A DNA stretch of 64,000 nt, taken from positions 12,964-76,963 of the forward strand of contig CAXXTQ010000002.1 of NCBI GenBank assembly GCA_963665005.2. Reading direction: 5' to 3'. The notes below the pieces were generated by a model. The model did no database searches, was not told where the DNA came from, and saw nothing but the letters and a program-made list of their open reading frames with translations. This DNA comes from Christensenellaceae bacterium (GTDB lineage: Bacteria; Bacillota; Clostridia; Christensenellales; SZUA-584). The translations under genes were made by a program, and so were the position numbers. Below, in pieces: positions 1-38,776 of the stretch; the first letter of the stretch is position 1, and every line of letters begins with the position of its first letter.

Positions 1-896
1 GCAATAAGAGCTGGGCTGTTCAATCCAGTGCATCCATAGTTACCCTGTTTAATCATTTCAAAGGCTTCTTTTTGTCCATCAGCTGCAGCAGCTATTAGTT
101 TTCCTTCAAGCTGCCCTGCTTCTTCAAGCACCTTCATAGCAGCCATTGTCATAACATCTGCCTCGGAAAGAAGTACATTGAAATCTTCATTTAGTGACAA
201 ACAATCTTCCATAACTACAACTGCCTCATCTTCAGTCCAGCCGGTATAACCCTGGAAGATGATCTCCAAGTTCACACTGCCCTGAGAACGAAGCTGCTCC
301 TCCACGATGCCGTCGATCAAACCCAGACGGCGCAGCTGCGAATTCATCGTTCCCATTGCTCCGCTGATCAGTACAGCCGTAATTTTTTCATTGCCCATCT
401 GCTGCGCAGCCCATTCACCGCATGCAAAACCGTTGCCATAATTGTCAGCCTGCACGGTAGTCAGAACATTCGCCGCATCTTCAAGCCCGCCATCAATCGC
501 GATAACCGGCGTTCCACCTGCTGTAATCGTGTTGATCGTTGTGGTCAAAATCTGCGTATCGAAAGAGTTGACAAGGATAGCGTCGCAACCCTGAGTCACC
601 AGATCTTCCATATTTGCGATCTGTTTTGACGAATCACCCTGAGCGTCAAACAATACCAGTTCCCATTCCTTTTCATCACAAATCTTCTGAAGTGTGGTCT
701 GAATGGTCACATAAAACGGGTGAACCATGCTGATCATGGAAAGACCTATCTTGTAATTCCCATCTGCTACAACAGCACTGCTTCCATCTGTATCATCCGC
801 GCTCTGCGTTGTAGGCTCTGTAGAACAACCTGTATAGAGCACCAACACCAACGCAATTGCAACACAAAACGCAATTACCCTCTTCTTACTTTTCAT
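1..896 (-). CDS. Sugar ABC transporter substrate-binding lipoprotein (RbsB/PBP1-like); 3-prime end lies outside the window
   Basis: Absent from the ORF track because it is open to the window edge. Reverse translation from ATG 894-896 (AGGAGG about 6 nt upstream) gives MKSKKRVIAFCVAIALVLVLYTGCS, a signal peptide plus lipobox. This is followed by KIGLSMISMVHPFYV, CDAILVNS and VQADNYGNG, typical of ribose/galactose-type binding proteins. Confidence 0.8.
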   Translation of the reverse strand, partial: MKSKKRVIAFCVAIALVLVLYTGCSTEPTTQSADDTDGSSAVVADGNYKIGLSMISMVHPFYVTIQTTLQKICDEKEWELVLFDAQGDSSKQIANMEDLVTQGCDAILVNSFDTQILTTTINTITAGGTPVIAIDGGLEDAANVLTTVQADNYGNGFACGEWAAQQMGNEKITAVLISGAMGTMNSQLRRLGLIDGIVEEQLRSQGSVNLEIIFQGYTGWTEDEAVVVMEDCLSLNEDFNVLLSEADVMTMAAMKVLEEAGQLEGKLIAAAADGQKEAFEMIKQGNYGCTGLNSPALI

Positions 897-966: not shown

Positions 967-2376
967 TCAATCTCTTTTTATATCAATTATCCTGTCTACG
1001 TACCAAATCGCGCCTTCTGTCTCAGGAGTCAAGAGTAAAACCGCCATTCCTCTTTTACAATAACCCTTTATTTGATCCATAAACTGTACACATACTTCAA
1101 AATCTATTTCGCGTACCGGAAAGCCAATTATCAATATTCTCGGTTTAGTTGCTAATGCCCGCCCAAGTAGAACCTTGTACTGTTCAATGCTTTCAAGATC
1201 TTCAATACTGTCACATTTATTTCCTTTTAAAAATTGAACTATCCATTCTTCACAAATACCCCGTTCCACTCGTAGATTTATTTTTCCAAAACAACTGATT
1301 TTGTTTAACATGCCTAAAGACAAATTATGTATAATGTCTTCATCAGGTATCAATCTTTGATGCAGTTTTTTACCGGAAACATAAGCGATACTTTGCGAAA
1401 CCGCATTCCTTGGGCTTTTTATCTTCACTGATTTCCCATCAATATAAATATTTCCGTTGATTTTCTTTGTCAGACCAAAAAGCGTTCTGCCAATTTCTTC
1501 TCTCCTTGACCCGCTTACCCCCGATATCCCCAGCACCTCTCCTTCATAAAGCGAAAAATCAACGCCTTTAATACCTTTTGTATATAATTTTTCTACGCGT
1601 AAAATTTCATGTTTTCTTATTTTGCCGTTCTCTTTGTATGGGCCTTTAACCATATTCCCTTGCATCATAGCAAGCCTTTTTTCTTTAGAGCAATCATTCA
1701 CATATACGGTATTTACAACGCTGGCGTTATGTATGATGCTTATACGGTCTGCAATTTTAAAAGCTTCTTCAATTTGAGTTGTAATATATATAATTGAGAC
1801 TCCAGCTTCTATCAATAAATGTAACAGTTCATAAATCCTCTGTACCTCGTCTTTTTCAAATTCTTCAGTTATTCCTTCAAGTATGATTAAATCTGCGCCG
1901 GACGATACGGCTCTGGCGATCAAAACAAACTTTTTATGTAAATCAGATAATGTCTCAACCTTATCTTTCGGATCCAGTTCTAATCCCATTTTTAAAAAAA
2001 GTTTCAGCGCTTTAAGGCGCATATATCTTGGGGAAAGCCACTTCTTTTCATATCTATTGCCATTTAGAAGAAAAACATTTTCCGCCATACTTAAATTGGT
2101 TACAATACTATCGCTGCTCCGAATATATACAACTTTGGATTTAAGCTTTTCACATGTTTCCTGTGGTGGCATCTCCTCCTCTTGTATGTATATCTCTCCA
2201 TCGTCAGCCGTCTGGGCACCCGCTAATACGTCAATCAACGCGTCTTTCGCATTATCAGTATTAATAATCATTGCATGAATTTCTTTTTCATAAACGCTTA
2301 AACTGATACCGCATAAAATGCATTTTCCTTGTTGACTCTTTGAAACACTGTTTAGCCTTAACAATTCTTTGTTCAT
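967..2376 (-). CDS. Degenerate tandem-NBD ABC ATPase homologue (CUT2/RbsA-like fold, nucleotide-binding and catalytic motifs lost), called P1 here
   Basis: 469-aa ORF that aligns along its length with the authentic RbsA-like ATPase at 33172-34665. Walker A GENGAGKST is INTDNAKDA, signature LSVGYQQ is LSDLHKK, Walker B LIMDEPT is LIILEGI, and H-loop ISHRL is ITTQI. In the second NBD, GLVGAGRTE is GVSGSRREE, LSGGNQQK is LESIEQYK, and IIMDEPTRGID is LIIGFPVREID. Confidence 0.85.
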   Translation of the reverse strand: MNKELLRLNSVSKSQQGKCILCGISLSVYEKEIHAMIINTDNAKDALIDVLAGAQTADDGEIYIQEEEMPPQETCEKLKSKVVYIRSSDSIVTNLSMAENVFLLNGNRYEKKWLSPRYMRLKALKLFLKMGLELDPKDKVETLSDLHKKFVLIARAVSSGADLIILEGITEEFEKDEVQRIYELLHLLIEAGVSIIYITTQIEEAFKIADRISIIHNASVVNTVYVNDCSKEKRLAMMQGNMVKGPYKENGKIRKHEILRVEKLYTKGIKGVDFSLYEGEVLGISGVSGSRREEIGRTLFGLTKKINGNIYIDGKSVKIKSPRNAVSQSIAYVSGKKLHQRLIPDEDIIHNLSLGMLNKISCFGKINLRVERGICEEWIVQFLKGNKCDSIEDLESIEQYKVLLGRALATKPRILIIGFPVREIDFEVCVQFMDQIKGYCKRGMAVLLLTPETEGAIWYVDRIIDIKRD

Positions 2377-2473
2377 ATAATTCTCACCCTATATAATAAT
2401 AACACAACCGCTAAGAATCATAATATCTCAATCGACAATTATAATTTGGAAGTAAGAACCATATTCGCTTAAA

Positions 2474-2503
2474 TTGACATATGCCCATTTCGTTTGTTAT
2501 AAT
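2474..2503 (+). promoter_or_regulatory. Near-consensus sigma-70-type promoter for the RR1-HK1 operon
   Basis: TTGACA (2474-2479), 18-nt spacer, TATAAT (2498-2503), about 135 nt upstream of the RR1 start. Confidence 0.4.
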
Positions 2504-2637
2504 TAAATCAGTTCCAAATCTCACTTAAATTATATATCTGTCGTATTTTTAAACAATGACCTGGTTTTAATAATAAGAGGTCTATTATAAGGAATACAGC
2601 ATTTTTCATGTGTTGTTATTTTCAAGAGAGGCAAATT

Positions 2638-4242
2638 ATGTTAAAAGTAATGATTGCTGATGATGAAGCATGGGTTTTAAAATTAATAAAAAATTCAATT
2701 GATTGGAAATCTCTAGGTATGGAAATTGTTTGTGAAGCGACGGATGGGCAGGAGAGCTTGGACAAAATTAAGCAATTTTCCCCTGATATTGTTATAAGTG
2801 ATGTTAGAATGCCAGTTATTGACGGAGTTACTGTAGCTAAGCTTGTTAAAGATTCCAAGTTATCTCCAAAATTTATTATGTTGAGCGGTTATCAGGATTT
2901 TGAATACGTTCAAAAAGCTCTAAGAAACGAAGTAAGTGATTATTTGCTAAAACCATACGATGAAAATACAATGTTAAAAACATTAAAAAAAGTAAAAACA
3001 GAAATATATCTGGAACAACAACATATCATAGATATAAATAATATTAAAAAGCATCTCAATAGTAGTATAGATAAGCTTAAGAATAATTTATTATCAGAAT
3101 TATTATACGGTAATGTTAAAGATATTTCATCAGATAATCAATTTAATAAAGAATATCGTTTTAATTTTCAACAAGGGATATATCAAGTTATTTACATAAA
3201 ACGCACAGGGCCTTTTGAACTTAAGAAAGCTTATGACCCTATAGTGATGAATATAATAACAACTAATATTAATAAGGAAATTAAGAAATCTTGTCACGAA
3301 GTATCTATTATACATTTACATTACGGGATTGCAATCATCTTAAACTATCCGGAGCAAAATGTAGAATTAATAGAATCTTTGATTGCTCCATTTTGTTATA
3401 CAATATTGCAAGGACTACAAATGAATATAGCTGCTTCTACAGCTATTGGGATAGGAAGCTGTGAAATTTCATTATCAGATTTAGCCCGGTCTATGTATAA
3501 TGCAGAAGATTCTGCAAATTGCATGCTGTATTACGGGTGTAACAGAGTGTATGATATAAAAAATTATTCATTCGATGAATTATCAATATCCAATATTTTT
3601 TCTGCCGATAAGCAAAACCAATTCATTTGCATAGTTGAAACATTCAATACTGAAGAGTTGTCAAAATATATCAACACATTGTTTAAACCGCTTTTATTTA
3701 AAAATACACACCCCAGAGTATTGATGGATCTTAGTAAAGCACTTATTGATATACTCTATAATATTTTAAAAAAGATTAAAATTATTAATGATATGCTACC
3801 AACTGAAGAAATAGCAAAAGCTTCTGTAGAACGCTGTTCTACTTGTAATGAAATTCCGCGCCAATTAATTGCTTTTATTTCGGAAATATTCACATATTAC
3901 CATGATAATCACCCGGACACATTGAGCTCACCCGTTCAAATTGCTAAAAAATACATTTCAATTCATTATAGTGAACCTATCAAGCTTCAAGATATAGCTC
4001 AAATGGTTTATTTAAGCCCACAATACTTTAGTGAATTGTTTAAGCGTGACATGGGTTGTAATTTCAGCGATTATCTTTCACGATATCGGATTGAAGTCTC
4101 TAAAGAACTCCTTCTAGACCCCAGGTACCGTATTAAAGATATTAATTATATGGTTGGATATAAAGACTCAAAAAGTTTCAGCAAACTATTTAAGCAGCAT
4201 ATGGGCATAAGCCCTTTAGAATATAGAAAACTACATATTTAG
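2638..4242 (+). CDS. Response regulator, CheY receiver plus AraC/XylS HTH (YesN-like), RR1
   Basis: Receiver motifs MIADDE, DIVISDVRMP and LLKP. C-terminal AraC HTH (YLSPQYFSELFKRDMG, GYKDSKSFSKLFKQHMGISPLEYRK). Start trimmed from 2608 to ATG 2638, preceded by GAGAGG. Confidence 0.9.
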   Translation: MLKVMIADDEAWVLKLIKNSIDWKSLGMEIVCEATDGQESLDKIKQFSPDIVISDVRMPVIDGVTVAKLVKDSKLSPKFIMLSGYQDFEYVQKALRNEVSDYLLKPYDENTMLKTLKKVKTEIYLEQQHIIDINNIKKHLNSSIDKLKNNLLSELLYGNVKDISSDNQFNKEYRFNFQQGIYQVIYIKRTGPFELKKAYDPIVMNIITTNINKEIKKSCHEVSIIHLHYGIAIILNYPEQNVELIESLIAPFCYTILQGLQMNIAASTAIGIGSCEISLSDLARSMYNAEDSANCMLYYGCNRVYDIKNYSFDELSISNIFSADKQNQFICIVETFNTEELSKYINTLFKPLLFKNTHPRVLMDLSKALIDILYNILKKIKIINDMLPTEEIAKASVERCSTCNEIPRQLIAFISEIFTYYHDNHPDTLSSPVQIAKKYISIHYSEPIKLQDIAQMVYLSPQYFSELFKRDMGCNFSDYLSRYRIEVSKELLLDPRYRIKDINYMVGYKDSKSFSKLFKQHMGISPLEYRKLHI

Positions 4243-4253
4243 TGGAGATTCTT

Positions 4254-6017
4254 ATGCAAAAAAACAAAAAAAAATCTTCACTAAATAACATATCCACAGA
4301 CAAACAACATTTTCGAAAAACCCTTTTTAGGACATTTGCCTTAATAATAACTATTATATTGGTATCAGTTATTACTTATGGCTGTATTTATACAATACAT
4401 ATATCGAACATAAAGAAAAACGAGGAGTATTCATTTGCAACATCGTCTGTTTTATCTCTGCTTAATAAATGCTCGATAATAATAAGCGACCTTCAAATAA
4501 CAAACCTCTCTATTTCCAACGCATATACTTCCAATGAAAAAATCGCCTCTTCTTTATTGAATGAATCAGAATATTCAACCTACATTTATTCTGAAAGAAC
4601 TAACAAGTTGGAGCCGATATCATTATCAACTGTTATATCTTCAAATATGACATCAATACTTGAAGATATTAACTACTGTTTGCAAAACATAACTTCTACT
4701 TCATATGCACGGTTTGATGACGACCTTCATTATGCATATTATATTAATCAACTTGAAGATCAAGAAAATCTGTATATGGTGGTTATTGATGAAAATATAA
4801 TTGAAATTAATAACCTGCTCTCCTCCTCTATATTCGAGGGGTCAAGTTTGTTTATTAATGGTCTTGGCAACAATGTTCTTTATTCGCATAATATTGAAGA
4901 GAAAGATATATCGCGTTGGGAAACAGTCTATCGCAGAGCCGCTTTCGATTCAGCAAGTTCGGTGTATAGCAGACAACTAATCGAATCAAACGATGATTTG
5001 CTTTTTCATTATCCAATGGGCTTATTAGGATATACTTTTGGCGGTTCGCTTTTAATATCAAGCGTATATTCTTCTTTTATATATGAAATACTGCCGTTGT
5101 TCATTCTTACAATCATAATAATAGTTATTTCTGTTTATACAATAATAAAATTCAAAAGATCTATCTATATTCCTATTGTTGAAATAGAAAAGGGAATTAA
5201 CGGAATTACAAACAAGGAAATGAATCTTGAGATCGCGTTAGATGAATCCAACGAGTTCTTCCCTATGTCAACACAAATAAATAGAATAATCAGGGGCCTA
5301 AGAGAAATCCTCAATCGTGAATATAATGAAAAAATAATGCGCAAACAGGCGCAGATTAGTGCTCTGCAAAGTCAACTTAATCCGCATTTTTTATACAATA
5401 CCTTTGATTCTATGCGTGGGCAGGCATTGGAAAAAGGTGCTACAGAAATAGCAAACATATTGAAATCTATGTCAAGCTTATTTAAATACAGTATTAAACA
5501 CAAACCAAAAACAGTCACTCTATTCGACGAACTGAATAATGTTGACAATTATTTATATATACAACAATACCGATTCAATAATAAATTCACCGTAAAAAAA
5601 CAAATTGATAACGATGAGCACGGTCAAATATTATCGTATAGCATCCCTAAGCTCACGTTGCAGCCTATTGTTGAAAACTCATTGATTCATGGTATTGAAC
5701 CAACGCCAAAAAACGGTCTTCTGTCTATACGTATATTCACAACAAAACATAATCTTATAATAGAAATTGAAGATAACGGTAAAGGTATTCCTCCCGAAAA
5801 ACTTCGAGAACTTAATGAAAATTTATATCATGGTGTAGACCTTTTCGACATAAAAGAACAAGATAATGCTCATATAGGAATAGGAATGTTTAATGTTAAT
5901 GAACTTATTAAACTATTGTACGGTAATAAATATGGACTGAAAATCTATAGTACGCAAAATATTGGCACTACAGTTCAGATTATATTGCCCTTAATTCCAA
6001 CCATTTCAGAAAAATGA
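4254..6017 (+). CDS. Sensor histidine kinase, LytS/YesM type (PF06580-like H-box plus HATPase), HK1
   Basis: Two TM segments flank a roughly 250-aa extracytoplasmic region. H-box LNPHFLYNTFDSMRG, N-box QPIVENSLIHG, G-boxes EDNGKGIP and GIGMFNV. Start set to ATG 4254 (GGAG 6 nt upstream), immediately after the RR1 stop. Confidence 0.9.
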   Translation: MQKNKKKSSLNNISTDKQHFRKTLFRTFALIITIILVSVITYGCIYTIHISNIKKNEEYSFATSSVLSLLNKCSIIISDLQITNLSISNAYTSNEKIASSLLNESEYSTYIYSERTNKLEPISLSTVISSNMTSILEDINYCLQNITSTSYARFDDDLHYAYYINQLEDQENLYMVVIDENIIEINNLLSSSIFEGSSLFINGLGNNVLYSHNIEEKDISRWETVYRRAAFDSASSVYSRQLIESNDDLLFHYPMGLLGYTFGGSLLISSVYSSFIYEILPLFILTIIIIVISVYTIIKFKRSIYIPIVEIEKGINGITNKEMNLEIALDESNEFFPMSTQINRIIRGLREILNREYNEKIMRKQAQISALQSQLNPHFLYNTFDSMRGQALEKGATEIANILKSMSSLFKYSIKHKPKTVTLFDELNNVDNYLYIQQYRFNNKFTVKKQIDNDEHGQILSYSIPKLTLQPIVENSLIHGIEPTPKNGLLSIRIFTTKHNLIIEIEDNGKGIPPEKLRELNENLYHGVDLFDIKEQDNAHIGIGMFNVNELIKLLYGNKYGLKIYSTQNIGTTVQIILPLIPTISEK

Positions 6018-27343: not shown

Positions 27344-28879
27344 TTAGCTCTCCCCCATATCCTGCAGCCTCTCAAAGAAACCATGAAGCTCTACCATATA
27401 CTTAGAGTAAAGCTCGATATGCTTAGCATATTTCTCTTTCATTTCCGGCTTTGGATCATAAGCCTTCTCTTCTTTGACAAACCGTTTCGCCGTCTCTTTT
27501 ATATCCTTGAACACGCCTATCGCATTGCCCGCTAGTATCGCCGCTCCCCACATAGCAACATCCTCGCGGTTCAGCGTCTTGTACCTCTTCCCCTGTGCGT
27601 CAGCGCACATCTGTGTCCAGACAGGCGATTTCGCACCGCCGCCTATTATCTTTATGTTATCAATATTGTACTCAGGATAAAGCCTCTCGATGCTTCTTAA
27701 GCATAATGTAAAATCGTAGGTAAAGCTTTCGAGCAACGCTCGGTAAAAATGTTCTTTCTTATGGCTCCAGTCATGCCCCATCCACAATCCTCGCAAAGCT
27801 CCGTCAAGCGGCATCGAGCTCCCGCCTAAAAGCCCCAGCGCCATAAGCCCGTCGCACCCTATCGGCAACGCATCTACCTTCTTCTCTATCTCGGCAAACA
27901 TCTCTTTTGTAGAAACGCCTTCTTGTCTTACAAAAGTATTCATGAACCAGTCAAGCGTTATTCCCGAACCGGCAACGAAGTGTACCGCGTAAAACTCACC
28001 GGGTACAGCCGATGGAACGACATCAAGCCGCCTCTCCTTTAGATCCGGCCTGTATTGCTCCACACACGTACTGATCATACCATACGAAGACGCTTCAAAA
28101 ATCGTCTCTCCGGGCGTCACAATAGCGGCCCCTAGCGCACCAGCAGCTTTATCGCCCGCCCCGGAAACAAGCGGAACGCCTTCCTTCAACCCCATTACAT
28201 CAGCCATTTTCCCGGAAAGACGGCCGCATATGTAGTTTGACCTCACTATTTTTGGCAGATACTTTTTTTCAAGTCCTATGGCGTCACATATCTTGTCAGA
28301 CCATTGGTCGTTTTGTACATCCGCAAGTCCCGTCCATTCTGTATACGACCTGTCTATTACCGCTTCTTCTATCGGCACATTCCCAAGCCTGCCGATAACA
28401 TATCCGCTAATCATCAGATACTTGGCGATTTTTTTGCTTTCGTCGGGAAACTCATTTTTGAACCATTCATATTTTGGAGCCATCTGAGGAAAATTAGTAC
28501 CCGCAATCCCTAGGAAGTCATCCTTGAGTTCCCCCATCTGCCGCTCCGCATACGGCATATACCGGCTGTCAAGCGAGCAAGACCAAGTTGTTATATCATT
28601 CCAGTCCTTGTCTACCCCCATGAATCCGGACATCTGCCCGGTAAAAGCGATAGCCTCTATGTTTTTAGCACGGTCTCCAAGCGCTTGCGATATCTTTTTT
28701 ACGCATTCAACTACCGATTCAAAAAGCTCCTCGCCTTTCTGTATAAACACTCCCGGGCTTGGCCGGTAATCTTTTACAGGCTCATTTGCAATCGCCACAC
28801 AATTACTTGACGTATCATATACTCCCGCCTTTATGAAGCTCGTCCCAAGGTCAACCGCCAGCAGTAATACTTCTTGCAT
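27344..28879 (-). CDS. FGGY-family carbohydrate kinase (xylulokinase-like)
   Basis: 511 aa. N-terminal LAVDLGTSFIKAG and C-terminal GGGAKSPVW motifs. Confidence 0.85.
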   Translation of the reverse strand: MQEVLLLAVDLGTSFIKAGVYDTSSNCVAIANEPVKDYRPSPGVFIQKGEELFESVVECVKKISQALGDRAKNIEAIAFTGQMSGFMGVDKDWNDITTWSCSLDSRYMPYAERQMGELKDDFLGIAGTNFPQMAPKYEWFKNEFPDESKKIAKYLMISGYVIGRLGNVPIEEAVIDRSYTEWTGLADVQNDQWSDKICDAIGLEKKYLPKIVRSNYICGRLSGKMADVMGLKEGVPLVSGAGDKAAGALGAAIVTPGETIFEASSYGMISTCVEQYRPDLKERRLDVVPSAVPGEFYAVHFVAGSGITLDWFMNTFVRQEGVSTKEMFAEIEKKVDALPIGCDGLMALGLLGGSSMPLDGALRGLWMGHDWSHKKEHFYRALLESFTYDFTLCLRSIERLYPEYNIDNIKIIGGGAKSPVWTQMCADAQGKRYKTLNREDVAMWGAAILAGNAIGVFKDIKETAKRFVKEEKAYDPKPEMKEKYAKHIELYSKYMVELHGFFERLQDMGES

Positions 28880-29034
28880 TTTCCCTTTTCCTCCTCAATA
28901 ATCTCTCTGTTAAAACAATTTGAGAGCAAAAGACAATCTTATTGCAGCTTGTCAAATGCCCTCAAATCACCCCTTCACTCTACTAAAAATCAGAGGTATT
29001 AGCATCTATATATTTTTTGTTCGCACCTTTTTAC

Positions 29035-29808
29035 TCATACTCCCGTATCAGTCTTTTCCTGATTCGGCTGTCCGTTCCAAGCCGACAAGCCTCCGTCCAC
29101 GGGAATGTTCACTCCGCATAGATGTGTAGCCTGATCGGACGCGAGATATACGATCACGTTTGCGCACCACTCCGGCTCGCACAACGCCCTTGCGGGCATA
29201 TTCTTGCGGAAACTCTCCAAAACCGCTCTAGATGCGCCCGTTAAAAACATTGGCGTCTTGACCGCCGAAGGCGATATTATGTTAACACGCACGCCCTGCA
29301 TTGAGTAATCCATGGCTACTGCCCTCGACATCGCTATAACGGCGCCTTTTGTCGCGCAGTAAAGCGACATGTTATAATCTCCGCCCATACCAGATACTGA
29401 TGCAACATTAACTATTGCGCCCTTCTTCTTGGCGAGCATCTGGGGCCCGAACGCCTTCATGGTATGGAATGTACCGCGTACATTTACATCAAACTGGAAA
29501 TCATAGTCCTCTTCCGGCGCATCCTCAATCTGCCCAACTCGGAACACACCCGCACAGTTTGCCAACACATCCGCTCCGCCTGCATCGTTAACCATCTTTG
29601 CAAGAGCCTCTACCTGTTCCCATTTGCCTACATCCGCAGCCTTACAGAAAACATTACCCGGATAATCCTTTTCGAACTCGCCGCATACGCTCTGAAGCTG
29701 ATCCGCTTTCCAATCCGTCATAAAAACTTTATCACCAAGCTTCAAGAAAGCTTCTACCGTTGACTTGCCAACTCCTGATGCAGCCCCTGTAACTACTACA
29801 TTTCTCAT
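29035..29808 (-). CDS. Short-chain dehydrogenase/reductase
   Basis: TGAASGVGKS cofactor motif and YCATKGAV catalytic YxxxK. Confidence 0.9.
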   Translation of the reverse strand: MRNVVVTGAASGVGKSTVEAFLKLGDKVFMTDWKADQLQSVCGEFEKDYPGNVFCKAADVGKWEQVEALAKMVNDAGGADVLANCAGVFRVGQIEDAPEEDYDFQFDVNVRGTFHTMKAFGPQMLAKKKGAIVNVASVSGMGGDYNMSLYCATKGAVIAMSRAVAMDYSMQGVRVNIISPSAVKTPMFLTGASRAVLESFRKNMPARALCEPEWCANVIVYLASDQATHLCGVNIPVDGGLSAWNGQPNQEKTDTGV

Positions 29809-29820
29809 TTTATTACCTCC

Positions 29821-30219
29821 TTAAAGCGCCTGGCAGAGTTCTATGTGCTCGTTATCCGGCCCACGGAAAAACACCCACTTGGTGCCATTCGGGAACATAT
29901 CCGCACAGAACATCTGATCTTCCGTCTCAAACTTAATTCCTTTTGCCTCCAGCTCTTTACGGATTTCTTCTATATCATCCACCGCGTAAGCAACATGATC
30001 TGTCATGCCATCTCCCGGATTGGAACCGATCTTCCTCTGCACCAATTCCAAACATACGCTCCCCTTCTTTACAAATGCACACGTAAACGTATTCCCGTCT
30101 GCATCAAAAGAACATTGCTCTATGCACTCAAGTCCTAATATATCATTATAAAACTTCTTAGATTTCTCCACATCGTCCACAAATATACCGATGTGCCCTA
30201 ATCCAGTTACTTGTGCCAT
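29821..30219 (-). CDS. VOC/glyoxalase-family protein
   Basis: 132 aa with GLGHIGIFVDD and HVAYAV metal-ligand contexts. Confidence 0.75.
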   Translation of the reverse strand: MAQVTGLGHIGIFVDDVEKSKKFYNDILGLECIEQCSFDADGNTFTCAFVKKGSVCLELVQRKIGSNPGDGMTDHVAYAVDDIEEIRKELEAKGIKFETEDQMFCADMFPNGTKWVFFRGPDNEHIELCQAL

Positions 30220-30230
30220 ATCTTTTCTCC

Positions 30231-31247
30231 TTAATTCTTAATCAACACTTTTATACAATTCGAAGAATTATTCATCACGAATTCAAATGCTTCTTTTACT
30301 TTATCTAATGGGAATTCCTGTGTTAACAACAAATCTAAATTTATTTTCTTTTTTTCAACCATTTTAGCCGCTTCTCTAAAATCTTCCCATGTATATTCAA
30401 GTGCACCCCGAATCGCTATCTCTCTATCTTCTACCCGGAACATATCCACCTTCGGAGTCATTCCATAAACCCCCATTGCGATAACTTCTCCACCACGATC
30501 TGTATGTTTTACACATGTTGAGAGGCTCTTTTCGTTTCCAACGCACTCAAACGTGTATCTGGTATAATTCTTTCCTGTCTCTTTAACCAATGTTTCTTCA
30601 ACAGACTCTTTTAAAATATTTATGGGTATTAATCCCAGCTCTTCTGCTATCTTTAATCTGCTATCTATAAGGTCGGAAATAAAAACTTTTTTTGCGCCCT
30701 TGTTTTTTGCAGAAACCGCTGTCAAAAGGCCGATTGTTCCCGCTCCTGATACCAACACATTTTCACTTCTAAGCTCTTTAATCATATTCGCACCGTGGAC
30801 ACCAACTGCCAGCGGTTCAATCATCGCAGCATGACGCAAATCAGTGTTATCATCTAATACAATTGCATTATCAGCATCAACAATAAAATAATCAGCCATC
30901 CCTCCCATATAGAACGTCTGTTCAGGACATATTGCCACTAAACCTTTTTTACAGGTCCAGCATTGCCCGCAACTTCTTACCGGTTGTACTGTAACTTTTT
31001 TGCCGATTTCTAAACCTTTCACACCAGAACCTATGTCGTCTACGATTCCTGAAAACTCATGCCCCAATTCAACCGGATATTTACCTTCCATCAGCGGATG
31101 CTCGCCTTTGAATATATGAATATCCGAACCACATATCCCGCAATAAGCCACTTTAATTCTGACTTGTCCCGATCCGGCCTTAGGCATTTCCATTTCTCTA
31201 ATATTCAAATTTTTTATATCTTCACAATACACTTGTTTCATATTCAT
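30231..31247 (-). CDS. Zinc-dependent polyol/alcohol dehydrogenase (sorbitol dehydrogenase-like MDR)
   Basis: CGICGSD, GHEFSG, structural-Zn Cys cluster CGQCWTCKKG, and GAGTIG Rossmann motif. Confidence 0.85.
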   Translation of the reverse strand: MNMKQVYCEDIKNLNIREMEMPKAGSGQVRIKVAYCGICGSDIHIFKGEHPLMEGKYPVELGHEFSGIVDDIGSGVKGLEIGKKVTVQPVRSCGQCWTCKKGLVAICPEQTFYMGGMADYFIVDADNAIVLDDNTDLRHAAMIEPLAVGVHGANMIKELRSENVLVSGAGTIGLLTAVSAKNKGAKKVFISDLIDSRLKIAEELGLIPINILKESVEETLVKETGKNYTRYTFECVGNEKSLSTCVKHTDRGGEVIAMGVYGMTPKVDMFRVEDREIAIRGALEYTWEDFREAAKMVEKKKINLDLLLTQEFPLDKVKEAFEFVMNNSSNCIKVLIKN

Positions 31248-31272
31248 TTATTCTCCATATTTTTCAATTTAT

Positions 31273-32118: not shown

Positions 32119-32195
32119 TTATTATACCTCCTTCAATAGGTTAACTTATTATTTTTCATGGTCTTCATTGCATAAATTATTGATACTGCCTATTG

Positions 32196-33152
32196 CTATT
32201 TTTCTTTAGCCATACGTAATTTCTGTAAACAATCAAAGCTTACCGCCAACAACAAAACAACACCCTGTACAACAATTTGCACATACTCGCTTACATTTGC
32301 CAGAGCCATACCATTTGCAAGCACGCCCATTATAAACACACCAATCAAGCAACCAAACACTGAGGCCGATCCACCTGAAATACTTGTTCCTCCCAGAACA
32401 CATGCTATAATAACATCGAACTCAAACCCTCCTCCTGTATTCGGCGATCCTGTGTTGATCCTTGAAAGGGTCACTATACCTGCTATACATGCAAATACAC
32501 TGCTCAACACATATACGCTCGTCTTCATGACGTCAACATTTATACCAGAAAGTTTTGCAGCTTCCTCGTTTCCTCCTATGGCAACATAATATCTGCCATA
32601 AGTCGTTTTATAAAGCAATAACCATGCCAATACAAAAGTAATCGCAAAGATAATTACAGGTATCGGGATATATGCCAAGTACCCTTGTCCAATTACTTTA
32701 AATTCTGTAGTAAAACCATATATGGGTAACCCGCCGCATATAAGGTAGGCTGCACCTTGAAGTATTTTCATAAAAGCAAGCGTCGCAATAAAGGGCGGTA
32801 TCTTTACCTTCGTAATAAACAAGCCAGTAATCAAGCCCGCTATAATGGCCATGACAATGCATATTAGTATTGCCAGGTACATATTCATACCCATATTAAC
32901 CATCATGTAGGCGCATATGATATTTGTAAATGTAACTTGTGAGCCTACTGATAAATCTATACCTCCCACTAACAATACAAACATCATACCTGCAGCGGCA
33001 ATCCCGACCATTGATACTTGTCTTGCAATATTTAACGTATTGTTAATTGAAAAGAAATTATTTGCAGTAAATGAAAAGAATATAACAAGAGCAATTAACA
33101 CAAATACGATTGCATACTTCCCTAAGAATTTCGCCTTTCCTTCTTTATACAT
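32196..33152 (-). CDS. CUT2 sugar ABC permease (RbsC-like)
   Basis: 318 aa, about 9-10 TM, typical RbsC/branched-chain permease pattern (GGIDLSVGS). Confidence 0.9.
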   Translation of the reverse strand: MYKEGKAKFLGKYAIVFVLIALVIFFSFTANNFFSINNTLNIARQVSMVGIAAAGMMFVLLVGGIDLSVGSQVTFTNIICAYMMVNMGMNMYLAILICIVMAIIAGLITGLFITKVKIPPFIATLAFMKILQGAAYLICGGLPIYGFTTEFKVIGQGYLAYIPIPVIIFAITFVLAWLLLYKTTYGRYYVAIGGNEEAAKLSGINVDVMKTSVYVLSSVFACIAGIVTLSRINTGSPNTGGGFEFDVIIACVLGGTSISGGSASVFGCLIGVFIMGVLANGMALANVSEYVQIVVQGVVLLLAVSFDCLQKLRMAKEK

Positions 33153-33171
33153 TATATACCATTTCCTCCAT

Positions 33172-34665
33172 TCAACTTACCTTTGATGCATAGTGCATTA
33201 TTTTTTCTTGAGAAAACTCTTCTCTTTTTAACTGGGCTCGTATTTTCCGTTCGCACAAAACAAGTATTCGATCAGACATTCCCATTAACTCAGGCATCTC
33301 CGACGAAATCATAATTATTGTTTTACCCTGTTTAACCATCTCATTTATGAGTATGTATATTTCATATTTTGCCCCAACGTCTATACCTCTGGTCGGCTCA
33401 TCCATTATAATTAGATCGGGCTGTGCCGCAAGCCATTTTGCAACAACAACCTTTTGCTGGTTGCCCCCGCTCAGATTTTTCACAAGCTGTTGTATAGACG
33501 GTGCTTTTATTGTAAGTGCATTTTTATATTTATCAATAATTTTTCTTTCTTTACTTCTATTGATCCAGGACAAAAAGGATATCTTACTTAACATAGCAAG
33601 CGTAATATTCTGGGCAATTGACATATGTGCTAATATACCATGCTCTTTACGGTTTTCCGGCACCAACACGATTCCGTGAGCAATCGCATCTTTGGGAGAT
33701 TTAACATGTATTTCCTTCCCCTTCAATTTCAACTTTCCAGATTTTATCTTTGCAGTGCCGAATATTAATTGCGCCATCTCCGTACGCCCAGCACCTACAA
33801 GGCCGCCCAAGCCCAGTATTTCTCCTCGATATAGCTTCATATTTAAGTTTTCAAATCCATTACCTGATACCCCTTCCATTTCCAGCAGTACTTCATCGGT
33901 AATCTGGGGCTCCTCTTTAGGAAATATGTTTTTTATTTCACGTCCTACCATCATTGTAATAAGCGTATCTCTTGTTATCTCGTTTGTATCCATAGTCGTA
34001 ATTAGCTTACCATCCCTCATAACAGAAACTCTGTCAGATACCTCAAATATTTCTTCTAATCGATGTGAGATATATATAATACTGACTCCGGAGGCTTTCA
34101 ATGTTCTTATCAATTTGAATAACGTCTCCACTTCTGCATCTGTCAATGGTGCAGTGGGCTCATCCATTATCAACACTTTTATATCCGTTATTAATACTTT
34201 ACCGATTTCAACTAGCTGTTGATATCCAACGGAAAGATTTTTTATTTGATCGTTTATATCTATCTTTATATCTAACTGATCAAACACCTGCAGGGCACGC
34301 TTTTTCATTTCTTTTTTCTTTAAAAATTTCCCAACCTTTATCTCTCGTCCCAAGAACAGATTTTCCCACACGGTGAGTTCATTTACCAGATTAAATTCCT
34401 GATAGATAACACCAATACCTAATTCTTTCGAGCTATGTGGGTTAAAACCTTTATATTCTTCGCCTTCAATTACTATCGTACCGGAGCTGGGTTTATGTGC
34501 GCCTGCTGCAGTTTTTATCAATGTTGATTTGCCTGCGCCATTCTCACCAACAAGCGCATGCACCTCACCCTTACGAAGTGAAAAGCTCACATCATCTATT
34601 GCCAAAACACCCGGAAACGTTTTAGTAATATTACGAAATTCAAAAAAAGTCTTTTTATTTCCCAC
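33172..34665 (-). CDS. CUT2 sugar ABC ATP-binding protein (RbsA/MglA-like, tandem NBD, intact motifs)
   Basis: GENGAGKST, LSVGYQQ, LIMDEPT, GLVGAGRTE, LSGGNQQK and IIMDEPTRGID. GTG start with GAGGAA RBS. Confidence 0.9.
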   Translation of the reverse strand: MGNKKTFFEFRNITKTFPGVLAIDDVSFSLRKGEVHALVGENGAGKSTLIKTAAGAHKPSSGTIVIEGEEYKGFNPHSSKELGIGVIYQEFNLVNELTVWENLFLGREIKVGKFLKKKEMKKRALQVFDQLDIKIDINDQIKNLSVGYQQLVEIGKVLITDIKVLIMDEPTAPLTDAEVETLFKLIRTLKASGVSIIYISHRLEEIFEVSDRVSVMRDGKLITTMDTNEITRDTLITMMVGREIKNIFPKEEPQITDEVLLEMEGVSGNGFENLNMKLYRGEILGLGGLVGAGRTEMAQLIFGTAKIKSGKLKLKGKEIHVKSPKDAIAHGIVLVPENRKEHGILAHMSIAQNITLAMLSKISFLSWINRSKERKIIDKYKNALTIKAPSIQQLVKNLSGGNQQKVVVAKWLAAQPDLIIMDEPTRGIDVGAKYEIYILINEMVKQGKTIIMISSEMPELMGMSDRILVLCERKIRAQLKREEFSQEKIMHYASKVS

Positions 34666-34750
34666 TTAATTTCCTCTTTCGTTTTTTTTATAATTCTACA
34701 GACACGAACAGCAAATATATTACCGTTCGTGTCTGCACCTATTTATACCT

Positions 34751-35866
34751 TTATTCTAAATAATCTCCAAAATACGCCAGGGCTTCGTAATCAACCGTTA
34801 CTTCAATATCATAATTGAGCTGTTCCATCATTTCAGGTAAGTTATCATAAGTAATTGGAAGTACAGGCATATACAAAACACTTTCATAATCTTCGCCGCG
34901 TACAACCTTCATTGTTTCATCTATCATAGCTTCCGCGTGAAGAGCTCCCCCTCCAAGATTTGCACAGCCACGTATATAACCGCCCATGGCCATTAACGTA
35001 ACCGCTTCCAAGCTACCGTCGATTGTGAAAATACCAAAGTCATCATCAGCATTGGCCGCTACAATCGCCTCGTTTGCGCCAACACCGCCGCCATCACCAA
35101 AAGATAGAATGATGTCCATATCGGGGTAAGCCTGGAGCATGTTTTCAGCTCCATCAAATCCTTCAGTTGCTACCAAAGCGTCTTGCTCTATAACGACCTC
35201 CGCGTTAGGAGCCAGTTCTGCAAGAGCATCTTTCATTCCTTGAACACGCGTTGCGGCTATATCAGGAAATACGCTACTCCCGAATACTCCAACTTCAATT
35301 GTTTCCTTATTTTTTAGTGTTTCATGCTCATTGATCCATGCCGCTGCCATAGTACCACACATCACACCCGCATCATGATCAGGCATAGCATATTTAATAT
35401 CATCGACTAGAGATTCGGTCGTATAAGCACAAAGCGCAATGCCGTTGTCCTTTGCCTTCTGAAGCACGTCTTCACCTGCAGTTGTTGGCGTAATGTATAT
35501 AATGCCGTCATAACCAGCCGTAATGAAATTTTCCATTTGCTCAACAAATTTGCTGGGATCATCATCATAAGAAACGGATGTTACGTTGGCATTATACTTT
35601 TCCTTTGCATATACTTCTGCATGATTAACAAGATCAACCCAAACACTGTTAGTAAGGCCGCTGAATACGATGCCGAGCTGGTACTCCTTAGCAGTCTCGT
35701 CAACGCTATCATCAGGCTCTTCGCCACCATTTTCCGCAGTCTCTGTATCTACCGCTTCATCGGTAGACTGAACTTCGTTAGGTGCACCTGTACAAGCAGC
35801 AAATACAAACGCTAATAATAAAACTAACAGTACAAACGCTATGCTCCTTTTCATCTTCTTCACCAT
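34751..35866 (-). CDS. Sugar ABC substrate-binding lipoprotein (PBP1-like)
   Basis: Signal peptide plus lipobox (VFAAC), an acidic linker, then a binding-protein fold sequence. AGGAGG RBS. Confidence 0.85.
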   Translation of the reverse strand: MVKKMKRSIAFVLLVLLLAFVFAACTGAPNEVQSTDEAVDTETAENGGEEPDDSVDETAKEYQLGIVFSGLTNSVWVDLVNHAEVYAKEKYNANVTSVSYDDDPSKFVEQMENFITAGYDGIIYITPTTAGEDVLQKAKDNGIALCAYTTESLVDDIKYAMPDHDAGVMCGTMAAAWINEHETLKNKETIEVGVFGSSVFPDIAATRVQGMKDALAELAPNAEVVIEQDALVATEGFDGAENMLQAYPDMDIILSFGDGGGVGANEAIVAANADDDFGIFTIDGSLEAVTLMAMGGYIRGCANLGGGALHAEAMIDETMKVVRGEDYESVLYMPVLPITYDNLPEMMEQLNYDIEVTVDYEALAYFGDYLE

Positions 35867-36050
35867 TTTTGTTCCTCCTTTTGTTTTTACAATTTATACA
35901 ATCCACATAGCCGTGTTACATAAGCAAACCACAAAATACGGATTGTCGCTATTGCTCAGCATCATTTATACTAACACTCGCTCAATAAACCGTCTACGCG
36001 ACACTTTCTAGATTTCTCATGCCATTTTCAAGATATTTAATTTTGGTCAC

Positions 36051-36080
36051 TTGCTTTTATTATTTATAAGGGACTATAAT
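36051..36080 (+). promoter_or_regulatory. Candidate sigma-70-type promoter for the RR2-HK2-P2 operon
   Basis: TTGCTT, 18-nt spacer, TATAAT (36075-36080), about 30 nt upstream of the RR2 start. Confidence 0.3.
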
Positions 36081-36111
36081 AAAATAGGGAAAGGGGGATA
36101 AAATTAAATTT

Positions 36112-37725
36112 ATGATTACATCAAAGAAATTGTCAACAATAATCATAGATGACGAACCTAATGTCTGTGACTTAATAAAGCATTTAGGGAATTGGCAGGA
36201 GTTAAATATCGAAGTCATCGGAGAAGCAAATGGTGGTCAACAGGGTCTTGCCTTAATTCGAAAATACAAACCAGATATCGTAATAATTGATATGAGGCTT
36301 CCGGGGATTAGCGGAATTGATATTATTAAAAAATGTTTTACAGAACATATTTCGTCAAAATTTCTAGTTGTTAGTGGCTATAAAAAATTCGAATATGCTC
36401 AACAGGCTCTCACATTAAACGTTTCAGGGTATCTCCTCAAACCTATTAACAAATATGACCTTAATTCTGCCCTTAAAAAAATAATTACAGAGATTCAAAA
36501 TTCTTATGTTGCCAAGAATCATTTGCAAACTCTCTCCTCAACAATCGATATAAAACAAGGATATTTATGGGAGCAGCTATTTTTTGCATTGACCGAACAA
36601 AAAAGGAATAACATTGATATAAATAAACTTAGAAAAACTCTTGGAATTTCCAACGATAATATAAGCTTTGTATTTTTTATCGTTAAAATAGATGCTTTAA
36701 TTGATACATTAGATATAAATTCATTATTAAAACAGATTAATGCTTTATTAAAAAAATACTTTAATGAACAAGCTCCCTTTCCCTTACATATTTTCAAAAC
36801 CGAAAATCGCCTTTTTAGCATTTTATATTATGAATCGGCCAGTCCCTACAACGCCACGTCGATATTTAATAATATCTATCAACTAGTAAATAAAAAAATA
36901 CTTCCAGCCAAAGCAAAAGTAACTATAGGAATTAGTTCGAAAAAAAATAGTTTTTCTGATTTGCCGTCAGCATATCGCGAAGCCACAGCCTGCATAGAAT
37001 TTCGTCGTTATAGTACACAAAATATAATTTTGTATACCCCGGAAATCCCGTTGGTCCCAAAAGAATTTGCTGTTCCTCAAAAATATGAAGACAAAATCAT
37101 AAGAGCTATAGAAATCCAAAGTAAAGAAAAGGCTTTACAAATCTTTAATGATTTTTGGTCAGAATTTTTGCCCACTTTTAAGCCTCGCGGCAGTTTATTC
37201 ATTACAATTAGCGCATTTGTGGAAACATGGTGTTCAATACTTAATAGCTATTCTAAACATACGGATTTTTTTCAAAAAGAAAAATATATGCTTATTACAT
37301 CAATAGATAATGAAATGAACCTCAATAAAATTAAGGATTATGTTTCCATAATGATCAAATCTTCTATTAAACAATATGCTGACTGCCATAAATCATGGGG
37401 GGACCAATATATACGAACAGCTAAAAAATATATTGCAGAAAATTTGGGAAATGGTTTAACATTGGATGAAGTTGCTGAAGCAGTATCTTTAAATCCAATA
37501 TATTTTAGTTCATTATTTAAAACAAAAACCGAAATGAATTTCTCCAGTTATATCCAAAAGCAACGTATAGATATGGCTAAGCAACTACTTCAAAAATCTA
37601 AGTCTCCCATCAAAGTCATTAGTTCTTCCGTCGGTTATCAAGATATCAATTATTTTACAAAACTGTTTAAAAGGTATGTCGGAATTACTCCATCTGCATA
37701 TCGGCGTATGCATTTTCCAATTTAA
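36112..37725 (+). CDS. Response regulator, CheY receiver plus AraC/XylS HTH (YesN-like), RR2
   Basis: IIIDDEP, DIVIIDMRLP and LLKP. C-terminal AraC HTH (LNPIYFSSLFKTKTEMNF, GYQDINYFTKLFKRYVGITPSAYRR). Confidence 0.9.
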   Translation: MITSKKLSTIIIDDEPNVCDLIKHLGNWQELNIEVIGEANGGQQGLALIRKYKPDIVIIDMRLPGISGIDIIKKCFTEHISSKFLVVSGYKKFEYAQQALTLNVSGYLLKPINKYDLNSALKKIITEIQNSYVAKNHLQTLSSTIDIKQGYLWEQLFFALTEQKRNNIDINKLRKTLGISNDNISFVFFIVKIDALIDTLDINSLLKQINALLKKYFNEQAPFPLHIFKTENRLFSILYYESASPYNATSIFNNIYQLVNKKILPAKAKVTIGISSKKNSFSDLPSAYREATACIEFRRYSTQNIILYTPEIPLVPKEFAVPQKYEDKIIRAIEIQSKEKALQIFNDFWSEFLPTFKPRGSLFITISAFVETWCSILNSYSKHTDFFQKEKYMLITSIDNEMNLNKIKDYVSIMIKSSIKQYADCHKSWGDQYIRTAKKYIAENLGNGLTLDEVAEAVSLNPIYFSSLFKTKTEMNFSSYIQKQRIDMAKQLLQKSKSPIKVISSSVGYQDINYFTKLFKRYVGITPSAYRRMHFPI

Positions 37726-37732
37726 ATATGGT

Positions 37733-38776
37733 ATGAATATGAAATTATTAAAAAATAAAAATAATAAAATAAATTTTTTTTCTCATGCTGCTTTTGTACT
37801 ATATTGCCTATTATTTTCTGCGCAGATTTTCTCGCTTTATTTTATTTATCTTGCATATAGAGTATCCTTATTAAGTATTTTGTATTTCTTTTTTATAATT
37901 CTTTGTATGCTATTTTTTATTTTCATTATAATTCGGCCAATATATAAGAACTACAAACGCGGCAAAATTGCTGGCATTGTTGAAAACAATCCTTTTAAAA
38001 TGCTAAATAGCCTTGCTTCAGGTGCGTGGGTGAAAATCATTGAAGAAAACAATAATTTAGTTAAAAAAGACTACTCTAATAAAATACTTCTTAACCAAAT
38101 GAAATTTCAAACATTGCAAAATCAAATAAATCCTCATTTTTTATATAATTCCCTTGATTCTGTCCGTGGACTGGCAATAAAGGCAAAGGACTATTCTACA
38201 GCAGAAATGGTAGAAGCTCTCGCCTCATTTTTCAGATATAACATTGGTAATGAAAATGATATCGTTGAATTGCATCAGGAAATACAAAGTATACGCAACT
38301 ATTTTATTATCCAGAGATATCGTTTCTCAAATCGTTTTAAACTTGAGTGCCATTTTGATCAGAAAGACTCCTCAATTATTCAATATATGATTCCAAAACT
38401 AATAATACAACCGTTAGTAGAAAACGCAATATTTCATGGACTCGAACCCAAAGAAGGCAAAGGTTTCGTCGCCATCAATGTCCGTAAAACTACACACAGA
38501 CTGTATATATCAGTTGCCGACAATGGCGTAGGGATGAGCGACGCAGAATTACACTATCTCAATAAAAAATTGCTTTCAATTAAAAAAACTTCGCAAGGCT
38601 TATCTATTAGCGAAGATATGAAACATAAAAACATTGCTATACCTAATATAAATCAACGCATAAAAAGTATTTTTGGAGAAGATTTTGGTTTGCATATCAG
38701 CAGTACGCTCAATCTTGGTACAGAAATCGAACTCTCTCTCCCATTTCCATCACAGATAAAGGATTACAGCCAGTGA
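37733..38776 (+). CDS. Short LytS/YesM-type histidine kinase without an extracytoplasmic domain, HK2
   Basis: Two adjacent TM helices, a short linker, H-box INPHFLYNSLDSVRG, N-box QPLVENAIFHG and G-box ADNGVGM. The start is ambiguous (ATG 37733 or 37739; the ORF-track start 37676 overlaps RR2). Confidence 0.85.
   Translation: MNMKLLKNKNNKINFFSHAAFVLYCLLFSAQIFSLYFIYLAYRVSLLSILYFFFIILCMLFFIFIIIRPIYKNYKRGKIAGIVENNPFKMLNSLASGAWVKIIEENNNLVKKDYSNKILLNQMKFQTLQNQINPHFLYNSLDSVRGLAIKAKDYSTAEMVEALASFFRYNIGNENDIVELHQEIQSIRNYFIIQRYRFSNRFKLECHFDQKDSSIIQYMIPKLIIQPLVENAIFHGLEPKEGKGFVAINVRKTTHRLYISVADNGVGMSDAELHYLNKKLLSIKKTSQGLSISEDMKHKNIAIPNINQRIKSIFGEDFGLHISSTLNLGTEIELSLPFPSQIKDYSQ

Follow-up and report, generated by a model that had tools for sequence, protein, structure and literature searches.

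A degenerate RbsA-type tandem-NBD protein as a candidate accessory of YesM/YesN-type two-component systems

The window analyzed here, a 64,000-nucleotide (nt) stretch of the Christensenellaceae contig CAXXTQ010000002.1, carries a gene, P1, for a protein with the tandem nucleotide-binding domains (NBDs) typical of RbsA, the ATPase of CUT2-type sugar ATP-binding cassette (ABC) transporters, next to genes for a two-component system (TCS) of the YesM/YesN type. P1 is rather likely to belong to an old clade with few members, the RbsA-type tandem-NBD paralogues here called P proteins, which are no longer motors and have been kept as accessory, or third, components of YesM/YesN-type TCSs controlling CUT2 operons for sugar or polyol uptake and catabolism. 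The evidence suggests that a dead transporter engine has been recruited as a signaling part in several anaerobic Firmicutes-like lineages. P is most likely a non-catalytic signaling accessory of a sugar-sensing TCS, acting through a mechanism that we infer below.

Loss of the ATP site in P1

The membership of P1 in the NBD fold is not in doubt. PF00005 (ABC_tran, Pfam) matches the protein in two stretches, one in each half (E=1.4e-19, 71.5 bits vs a cut-off of 25), and the alignment of P1 with the window's own intact CUT2 ATPase runs from end to end at 28% identity (E=3e-47, BLASTP), in agreement with the initial annotation of this DNA, which had been made from the sequence alone. Structure prediction of P1 bears out the same reading: the AlphaFold2 (AF2) model, built from a 67-sequence alignment, has a mean pLDDT (predicted local distance difference test) score of 84.4, and its top Foldseek matches in the PDB are fused double-NBD proteins (E=3e-26).

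The ATP-site motifs tell a different story. P1 was compared with 64 (in further comparisons up to 81) intact CUT2 ATPases at alignment columns conserved in at least 85% of them, and it retains 32 of the 72 such columns among the 64. RbsA-type proteins have one competent ATP site, the other being natively degenerate (PMC11466899); the competent CUT2 site is composed of the Walker A, Walker B, and H-loop of NBD1 together with the signature of NBD2. In P1, the NBD1 Walker A, GxxGxGK[ST] by consensus, has become INTDNAKDA, with the loss of G38, N40, G41, G43, S45, and T46, leaving Lys44 as its sole surviving residue. The Q-loop Gln is replaced (Q87 to S), as are D167/E168 of the NBD1 Walker B (to E/G), H200 of the H-loop (to T), and the NBD2 signature LSGGNQQK, which reads LESIEQYK and lacks S395, G396, G397, N398, and Q400. 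Because all of these elements are replaced, P1 lacks the only competent CUT2 ATP site; judging from its sequence, the catalytic site is destroyed and the protein is non-catalytic. The AF2 model places only residues 39-40 between a strand (33-38) and a helix (41-52), a two-residue turn where the Walker A of an intact ATPase spans nine residues. Consistently, the best NCBIfam equivalog of P1 is YtfR, at 232 bits vs a cut-off of 850, and P1 falls below every CUT2 equivalog cut-off; the window ATPase, in which all motifs are intact, scores 571 vs the cut-off of 699 for XylG.

Profile alignment thus upheld the motif losses reported in the initial annotation, with two corrections to its statement that all motifs of both NBDs are replaced. 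The statement stands for the NBD1 Walker A, Q-loop, Walker B, and H-loop and for the NBD2 signature, except that Lys44 is kept. P1 also differs in the NBD2 Walker A and in the NBD1 signature, but these differences are uninformative, as genuine RbsA-type proteins already depart from the canonical form in both, with GxxGxGRTE for the former.

Purifying selection and an additional, intact ATPase

A word-indexed search of 5.8 billion clustered proteins for relatives of P1 returned P1 itself and one orthologue, P0002, which is 58% identical; searches of the same kind with P2, a second degenerate protein of the window, and with a nine-sequence profile yielded self-matches and the 58% orthologue only, the profile adding nothing new. 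P0002 has likewise lost the Q-loop Gln, the catalytic Glu, and the H-loop His, has LDNSDQYK as its NBD2 signature, and carries substitutions equivalent to those of P1 (AKD in Walker A, FP in Walker B2, and QYK in signature 2); the degeneration is therefore older than the split of the P1 and P0002 lineages. The codon alignment of the two genes has no frameshifts, and every indel is in frame. With a proportion of synonymous differences (pS) of 0.73, a saturated synonymous rate (dS) of about 2.6, and a nonsynonymous rate (dN) of 0.29, dN/dS is approximately 0.11, close to the 0.12 of the adjacent kinase in the same orthologue pair. P1 is under purifying selection. A run of 469 stop-free codons has a chance probability of 2.5e-18 at the base composition of P1 itself, and together with dN/dS this agrees with the view of the initial annotation that the open frame reflects selection rather than decay, although the 25-30% GC on which it had based this view has to be revised to 36%.

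On the contig of P0002 (L001), a pair of genes, one for a histidine kinase (HK) and the other for a response regulator (RR), in the order HK <- RR, diverges from an operon that runs P -> substrate-binding protein (SBP) -> intact 501-residue ATPase -> permease -> zinc-dependent alcohol dehydrogenase (Zn-ADH), FGGY kinase, AP_endonuc_2, and Zn-ADH, the last four making up a polyol-like catabolic set. An intact ATPase lies two genes 3' of P in the orthologous and related loci and three genes 3' in one of them, L120. Since these loci encode an intact ATPase too, P1 appears to be an extra component and not the transporter motor; the evidence comes from the orthologous loci, the window itself stopping inside the SBP gene. 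P1 as the sole motor of its transporter was rejected on the same grounds.

The P clade and its two locus types

When 1.84 billion representatives were searched exhaustively with a profile of P1 and P0002 (HMMER), 72,679 matches were obtained, the best 150 of which were inspected. Classified by motif status alone, the 149 proteins other than P1 in this best 150 fall into 135 with all five features of the consensus site and 14 that have degenerated in part or in full. The P1 layout recurs around P0122 (L031), P0124 (L032), P0133 (L038), P0123 (L120/L121), and P0126 (L122): in L001, L031, L032, L038, L120, and L122, the order is HK <- RR, then divergently P -> SBP -> intact ATPase -> permease -> FGGY kinase, AP_endonuc_2, and Zn-ADH, and L120 alone has an ADH gene between P and SBP. 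In this type 1 arrangement, the kinase has two transmembrane (TM) helices around an extracytoplasmic domain of 110-235 residues, and P heads the divergent transporter operon. Among the type 1 proteins, P0126 and P0123 are apparently competent, P0133 is partly eroded, and P1, P0002, P0122, and P0124 are fully dead.

The type 2 arrangement is represented by P2, which the initial annotation had missed, and by four further loci, L034, L036, L062, and L009. Its kinases are short (329-366 residues) and have TM helices but lack an extracytoplasmic domain; the P gene comes directly 3' of the kinase gene. P0205 (L034) and P0166 (L036) lie in the order RR -> short HK -> P; in L062 and L009 (Ruminococcus metagenome-assembled genome), RR -> short HK -> fully or largely degenerate P is followed in the same direction by SBP -> ATPase -> permease. 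The stop codon of HK and the start codon of P overlap or abut in four of the five loci, and a gap of 33 nt separates them in L036; P2, by its position, appears to be translationally coupled to HK2, the short kinase of its locus. P2 is only 19% identical to P1. It keeps a P-loop-like GLNNSGKST, but its NBD2 motifs are lost along with the catalytic Glu and the H-loop His, a pattern that most type 2 proteins share, with GLNxSGK[ST] as the common form.

A different layout surrounds P0125 (L123), which lies 3' of RR-HK and is followed by a permease and an SBP; the whole cluster (L123:430-8614) reads SBP-RR-HK-P0125-permease-SBP. P0125 is partly degenerate, with the H-loop lost and LSAGDQQK as signature. 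This cluster may represent an evolutionary intermediate, in effect a whole 'sensor transporter'.

Despite their diversity, the P proteins share several features. At least 15 members are known, all of full length and with intact frames, and the Pro of 'DEPT' in the NBD1 Walker B (Pro169) is missing from 15 of 15. The position of the gene is conserved across loci whose P proteins share only 27-33% identity. The traits proposed to delimit the clade, namely adjacency to a PF06580 HK and an AraC-type RR, loss of the Pro, motif erosion of varying degree, and a conserved helix after the Q-loop, were all found.

Further scans returned intact genes. A scan of genome contigs based on the P1 and P0002 alignment matched genes that are intact at all 29 loci, so that these patterns detect no P1-family member in GTDB representatives. 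For metagenome contigs, the pattern [LIM][SNT][IMV]AEN[IV]FL was used, which fits intact ATPases too; the 80 genes found are all intact ATPases, 78 passing every motif check and two (L105 and L107) missing only LS.G..Q. As a separate observation, P0116, an unrelated 515-residue tandem-NBD protein, keeps the NBD1 Walker A and the Walker B Asp-Glu, has lost the H-loop, and is degenerate in NBD2; degenerate tandem NBDs may thus be more widespread than the P clade.

The variation within the clade bears on the question of whether P1 could, after all, be an ATPase or transporter motor with unorthodox motifs, serving, for example, the same permease under other conditions. The survival of Lys44 in the P1 Walker A, the apparently intact consensus sites of P0123 and P0126, and the permease of its own that lies 3' of P0125 speak for it. 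In P1, however, the P-loop is without its glycines and Ser/Thr, neither the Q-loop Gln nor the H-loop His is present, the Walker B Asp/Glu and the partner signature are gone, the predicted structure offers two residues (39-40) where a nine-residue Walker A would be expected, and an intact ATPase is encoded two genes 3' in the orthologous loci. We therefore regard such a motor as very unlikely.

Linkage to PF06580 kinases and AraC-type regulators

The association of P with TCS genes was assessed against 109 control loci around intact CUT2 ATPases taken from the genome and metagenome scans, with TCSs scored within 10 kb. Six of the 109 have a TCS within this distance, and two of the six (L062 and L009) turned out to carry P and were moved to the P set, which otherwise consists of loci picked by motif status from the best 150 matches. 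Three contigs, those of P0214 (L037) and P0252 (L035) and a second one of P0124 (L033), are too short and were left out of the count. A PF06580 HK and an AraC-type RR lie beside P in 13 of 13 informative loci, vs 4 of 107 P-less control loci (Fisher p=3e-14), a comparison in which the controls span many phyla and L062 and L009 were found through their context. The neighborhood survey of homologues thus supports the connection with two-component systems from which the initial annotation had argued. Where the flanks reach the transporter, P loci have a single SBP, the exception being L123 with several. Among the four P-less control loci with a TCS, two (L043 and L050) have a second SBP beside the kinase, the classical clostridial three-component layout.

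Evolutionary rate and the conserved helix

In the orthologous type 1 loci (L001, L031, L032, L038, and L122), SBP, ATPase, and permease are 60-83% identical, whereas identities of 27-49% are found, pair by pair, for HK, RR, and P. By these sequence comparisons, P appears to evolve at the rate of HK and RR and not at that of the transporter. P is only 26-32% identical to its own neighboring ATPase, which indicates an ancient duplication. In a neighbor-joining (NJ) tree, all P proteins stand apart from the intact ATPases (bootstrap 73-75), and the subtrees of P and of the cognate ATPases are congruent. Given the low identity and the congruent subtrees, P seems to be an old paralogue that has been inherited with the locus; a recent tandem duplication of the neighboring ATPase was ruled out by the same two findings.

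Were P a functionless, decaying copy of the transporter ATPase, the loss of all catalytic motifs, the fast evolution, and the rarity of the family would be accounted for. This reading is nevertheless so improbable that it can practically be set aside, in view of dN/dS of 0.11 at saturated synonymous sites, the negligible probability of an open frame by chance, the number of full-length members, and a gene position that has outlasted the divergence of the proteins. A pseudogene is likewise contradicted by this dN/dS and by the intact frames of all members.

What has been conserved in P is not the catalytic machinery. The best-conserved nine-residue window of the clade corresponds to P1 95-103 (LSMAENVFL), the helix after the NBD1 Q-loop, while the windows of Walker A, Walker B2, and the signature, which come first among the intact ATPases, are found at ranks 172-417 of 461 among the P proteins. 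In ABC NBDs in general, this helix and the Q-loop line the cleft into which the coupling helix of the permease fits. A PDB sequence search for a CUT2 transporter structure onto which the docking cleft could be mapped found none.

Proposed role of P

We propose that P docks, through the preserved NBD cleft, onto a cytoplasmic coupling helix. The likeliest partner would be the RbsC-like permease, with P replacing the real ATPase in a fraction of the complexes; alternatively, the membrane-proximal linker of the kinase itself could be bound. P would then relay the occupancy or conformational state of the SBP-permease assembly to the cytoplasmic domains of the kinase, with no ATP hydrolysis involved. 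This accords with the working hypothesis of the initial annotation, in which P1 is a non-hydrolyzing decoy or adaptor that would report transporter state to the kinase; the hypothesis came through the three checks set for it, namely on motif alignment, TCS linkage, and selection. In the systems with short kinases (type 2), P would be the main signal input, and in the type 1 systems, in which it would be made from the induced operon, it would provide a feedback or gain-setting input. A more specific model, put forward tentatively and as possible rather than probable, is a four-part sugar sensor in which the SBP and permease of the transporter itself form the receptor and a dead NBD, taking the place of the motor on a subset of the permease dimers, passes the conformational signal to the YesM-type kinase. 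If true, a pseudo-ATPase would be the signal-input subunit of a histidine kinase and the cytoplasmic counterpart of the extracellular sensor-SBP paralogues.

The same docking could serve only as a brake or decoy in transport: P would compete with the ATPase for the permease dimer and throttle uptake, with no direct line to the kinase. Because P is the first gene of the induced operon, this would amount to built-in negative feedback, and it would accord with the non-catalytic nature of P, the position of type 1 genes at the head of the transporter operon, and the conservation of the NBD docking region above all others. Such a brake, however, accounts neither for the translational coupling of P to short kinases that lack a sensor nor for an evolutionary rate that tracks HK and RR, not the transporter; in the second locus of the window, moreover, P2 belongs to the TCS operon and not to the divergent transporter operon. 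We consider a role confined to braking quite unlikely.

Alternatively, P might act independently of the permease as a cytoplasmic sensor that binds the imported sugar or polyol, its phosphate, or, in type 2 proteins, a nucleotide, and modulates the kinase or the regulator directly. The ties of P to the TCS in synteny and evolutionary rate are in line with this, and the P-loop-like GLNxSGK[ST] of type 2 proteins, in combination with the missing catalytic Glu and H-loop His, would suit binding without hydrolysis. On the other hand, the NBD fold carries no added ligand-binding domain, a P-loop is altogether absent from the fully degenerate P1, P0122, P0124, and L009 proteins, and conservation peaks in the helix that would dock onto the transmembrane domain and not in a novel pocket. 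A sensor of this kind is unlikely.

Several observations weigh against P as a non-catalytic signaling accessory. P0126 and P0123 occupy the same genomic position with a seemingly competent site, and P0125 still has a permease and an SBP of its own, so the ancestral and perhaps the current role of P could be transport-related. The type 1 kinase has an extracellular domain of about 230 residues and no obvious need of P for sensing. P evolves fast while the permease onto which it supposedly docks is well conserved, and its contact with any partner is putative. HK-P fusion proteins were sought among the long profile matches and none was found, all of these being ATPase-permease fusions. Finally, the family is rare among the inspected matches, and the clustering of its fast-evolving sequences in the NJ tree may be inflated by long-branch attraction.

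Organization of the two loci

The features of both loci are collected in Table 1. Downstream of P1, the SBP1 gene encodes a protein 76% identical to the SBP of L001, and the SBPs of the orthologous loci are of the Peripla_BP_4 type. The stretch from the P1 stop (967) to the SBP start (896) contains no terminator-like site, the sole nearby one (878-853, minus strand) lying just inside the SBP coding sequence. The SBP gene 3' of P1, probably co-transcribed with it, and the divergent RR1/HK1 pair agree with the initial annotation. In the intergenic region of P1 and RR1, the predicted promoters face each other with start sites approximately 12 nt apart, and that of RR1 lies inside the putative 5' leader of P1; transcriptional interference between the P1 operon and the TCS is possible on this arrangement. 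An Rfam scan of the region gave no known RNA element, and a repeat search gave weak repeats only.

Table 1. Features of the P1 and P2 loci (window positions)
Feature	Position	Strand	Remarks
SBP1, substrate-binding lipoprotein gene	1..896	-	70 nt 3' of P1; continues past the window edge
P1, RbsA-like tandem-NBD protein, 469 residues	967..2376	-	ATG start; heads the transporter operon
P1 ribosome-binding site, AGGGTGAG	2383..2390	-	6 nt 5' of the ATG; read from the sequence
RR1/HK1 promoter, sigma-70 type, TTGACA-18-TATAAT, TG-extended	2474..2503	+	predicted; consensus; conserved in both L001 and L031
Candidate P1 promoter, TTGTTT-16 nt-TATAAT	2529..2556	-	putative; weak -35, consensus -10; conserved in L001
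RR1, receiver and AraC-type helix-turn-helix (YesN type)	2638..4242	+	divergent from P1
HK1, PF06580 (YesM/LytS-type) histidine kinase	4242..6017	+	two TM helices around an extracytoplasmic domain of ~230 residues
Intact CUT2 transporter	32196..35866	-	divergent from RR2; SBP 34751-35866, ATPase 33172-34665, permease 32196-33152
RR2, receiver and AraC-type regulator	36112..37725	+	
HK2, short PF06580-type kinase	37676..38776	+	TM helices, no extracytoplasmic domain; intramembrane-sensing architecture
P2, very divergent degenerate RbsA-like protein, 469 residues	38773..40182	+	starts with GTG; 4-nt overlap with the HK2 stop

Two gene starts merit comment. RR1 probably begins at 2638 (MLKV) and not at the mechanical start 2608 (MCCYFQERQI...), the L001 orthologue and the L062 regulator beginning at the equivalent of MLKV. 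The listed start of HK2 overlaps RR2 by 50 nt, and an internal ATG near 37733 (MNMKLL...), immediately 3' of the RR2 stop, is likelier, which would give a kinase of about 347 residues. At the second locus, RR2-HK2-P2 (36112-40182) diverge from a segment (27344-35866) with polyol-type catabolic genes and an intact CUT2 transporter, and just 3' of P2, a 120-residue open reading frame (40567-40929, minus strand) resembles a transposase fragment; the divergent orientation of the transporter here, as opposed to the single direction seen in L062 and L009, may be due to this transposase-like element. The regulatory genes are much richer in AT than their surroundings: GC is 30-31% in RR1/HK1 and 31-32% in RR2/HK2/P2, with P1 at its higher value (regions 2001-6000 and 36001-40000), vs 38-51% in the flanking transport and catabolic genes and a window mean of 41%.

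Comparison with known systems

With the ATPases of CUT2 transporters (RbsA, XylG, MglA, AraG, and YtfR), P1 shares the tandem-NBD fold and the length, is alignable end to end at 26-32% identity, and has its gene in a CUT2 operon that also encodes a Peripla_BP_4-type SBP and a BPD_transp_2-type permease. It differs from them in having lost the remaining competent site as well, in being additional to an intact ATPase, in scoring far below the equivalog cut-offs, and in evolving two to three times faster, in step with the regulators. Heterodimeric ABC exporters, CFTR, and RbsA itself resemble P1 in that catalytic residues have been lost while the fold is kept for a structural or regulatory role (PMC7756269, PMC11466899); they retain one active site and are still transporters, whereas both sites of P1 are dead and P1 is not a motor.

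The transmission of transporter state to a cytoplasmic regulator by the NBD of an importer is familiar from PstSCAB-PhoU-PhoR and MalK-MalT. In these systems, however, the signaling surface is provided by PstB and MalK themselves, which are active ATPases; PhoU is the adaptor, and no separately encoded, dead NBD paralogue is known. Tandem pstB paralogues with unequal roles occur in Firmicutes (PMC12096839).

In the BceAB-BceRS systems, a kinase that has no sensory domain relies on an ABC system as co-sensor (PMC3023708, PMC7828314). The short kinases of the type 2 loci, HK2 and four others, share this intramembrane-sensing architecture. HK1, the partner of P1, differs by its large extracytoplasmic domain; the permease here is of the BPD_transp_2 (RbsC-like) type and not a BceAB-type protein with a large extracellular domain, and the NBD of P1 is by its motifs non-catalytic. 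Signaling through Bce, by comparison, takes a working transporter of the peptide-resistance, exporter type, with ATP hydrolysis by an active BceA, and involves another kinase family. We know of no dedicated dead NBD in Bce systems.

Close parallels are XylFII-LytS-YesN of Clostridium beijerinckii and CuaD-CuaS-CuaR of Ruminiclostridium cellulolyticum, in which the third component is a duplicated, non-transporting part of a transporter (PMC8050422, PMC10384115). In the XylFII system, the same kinase and regulator families control an adjacent sugar ABC operon, and the Cua system is likewise a TCS that controls a sugar ABC transporter; the XylFII-like combination of a PF06580 kinase and a receiver/AraC regulator beside a sugar ABC operon is present at the P1 locus. 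The difference lies in the recruited part, which in both known systems is an extracellular binding protein acting on the extracellular domain of the kinase and here is a cytoplasmic motor subunit. In addition, the P loci that reach the transporter, L123 excepted, are without a second, sensor-dedicated SBP, and the kinases of the P2 type are without an extracellular domain on which one could act.

The recruitment of transporter parts as accessories of TCSs is thus a known kind of event, and a dead NBD in that role would be new; full-text literature searches turned up BceAB-BceS, Pst-PhoU-PhoR, three-component systems with a sensor SBP, and degenerate sites in transporters that still work, but no description of a dedicated dead or degenerate NBD as partner of YesM/LytS-type kinases, in keeping with the initial annotation, which knew of none. 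YesM/YesN sugar-sensing systems rank with the most common regulators through which gut and lignocellulose-degrading Clostridia control their use of carbohydrates. A conserved, selected, dead copy of the motor encoded together with the kinase offers a concrete, testable candidate for the sugar input of those kinases that have no extracellular domain. P genes are annotated as 'sugar ABC transporter ATP-binding protein', a label that would lead metabolic reconstructions and counts of transporters astray. If the proposed role is true, P would be a clean bacterial example of a pseudo-enzyme derived from an ABC ATPase, and the recruitment of transporter parts for signaling would extend from binding proteins, such as XylFII and CuaD, to the NBD.

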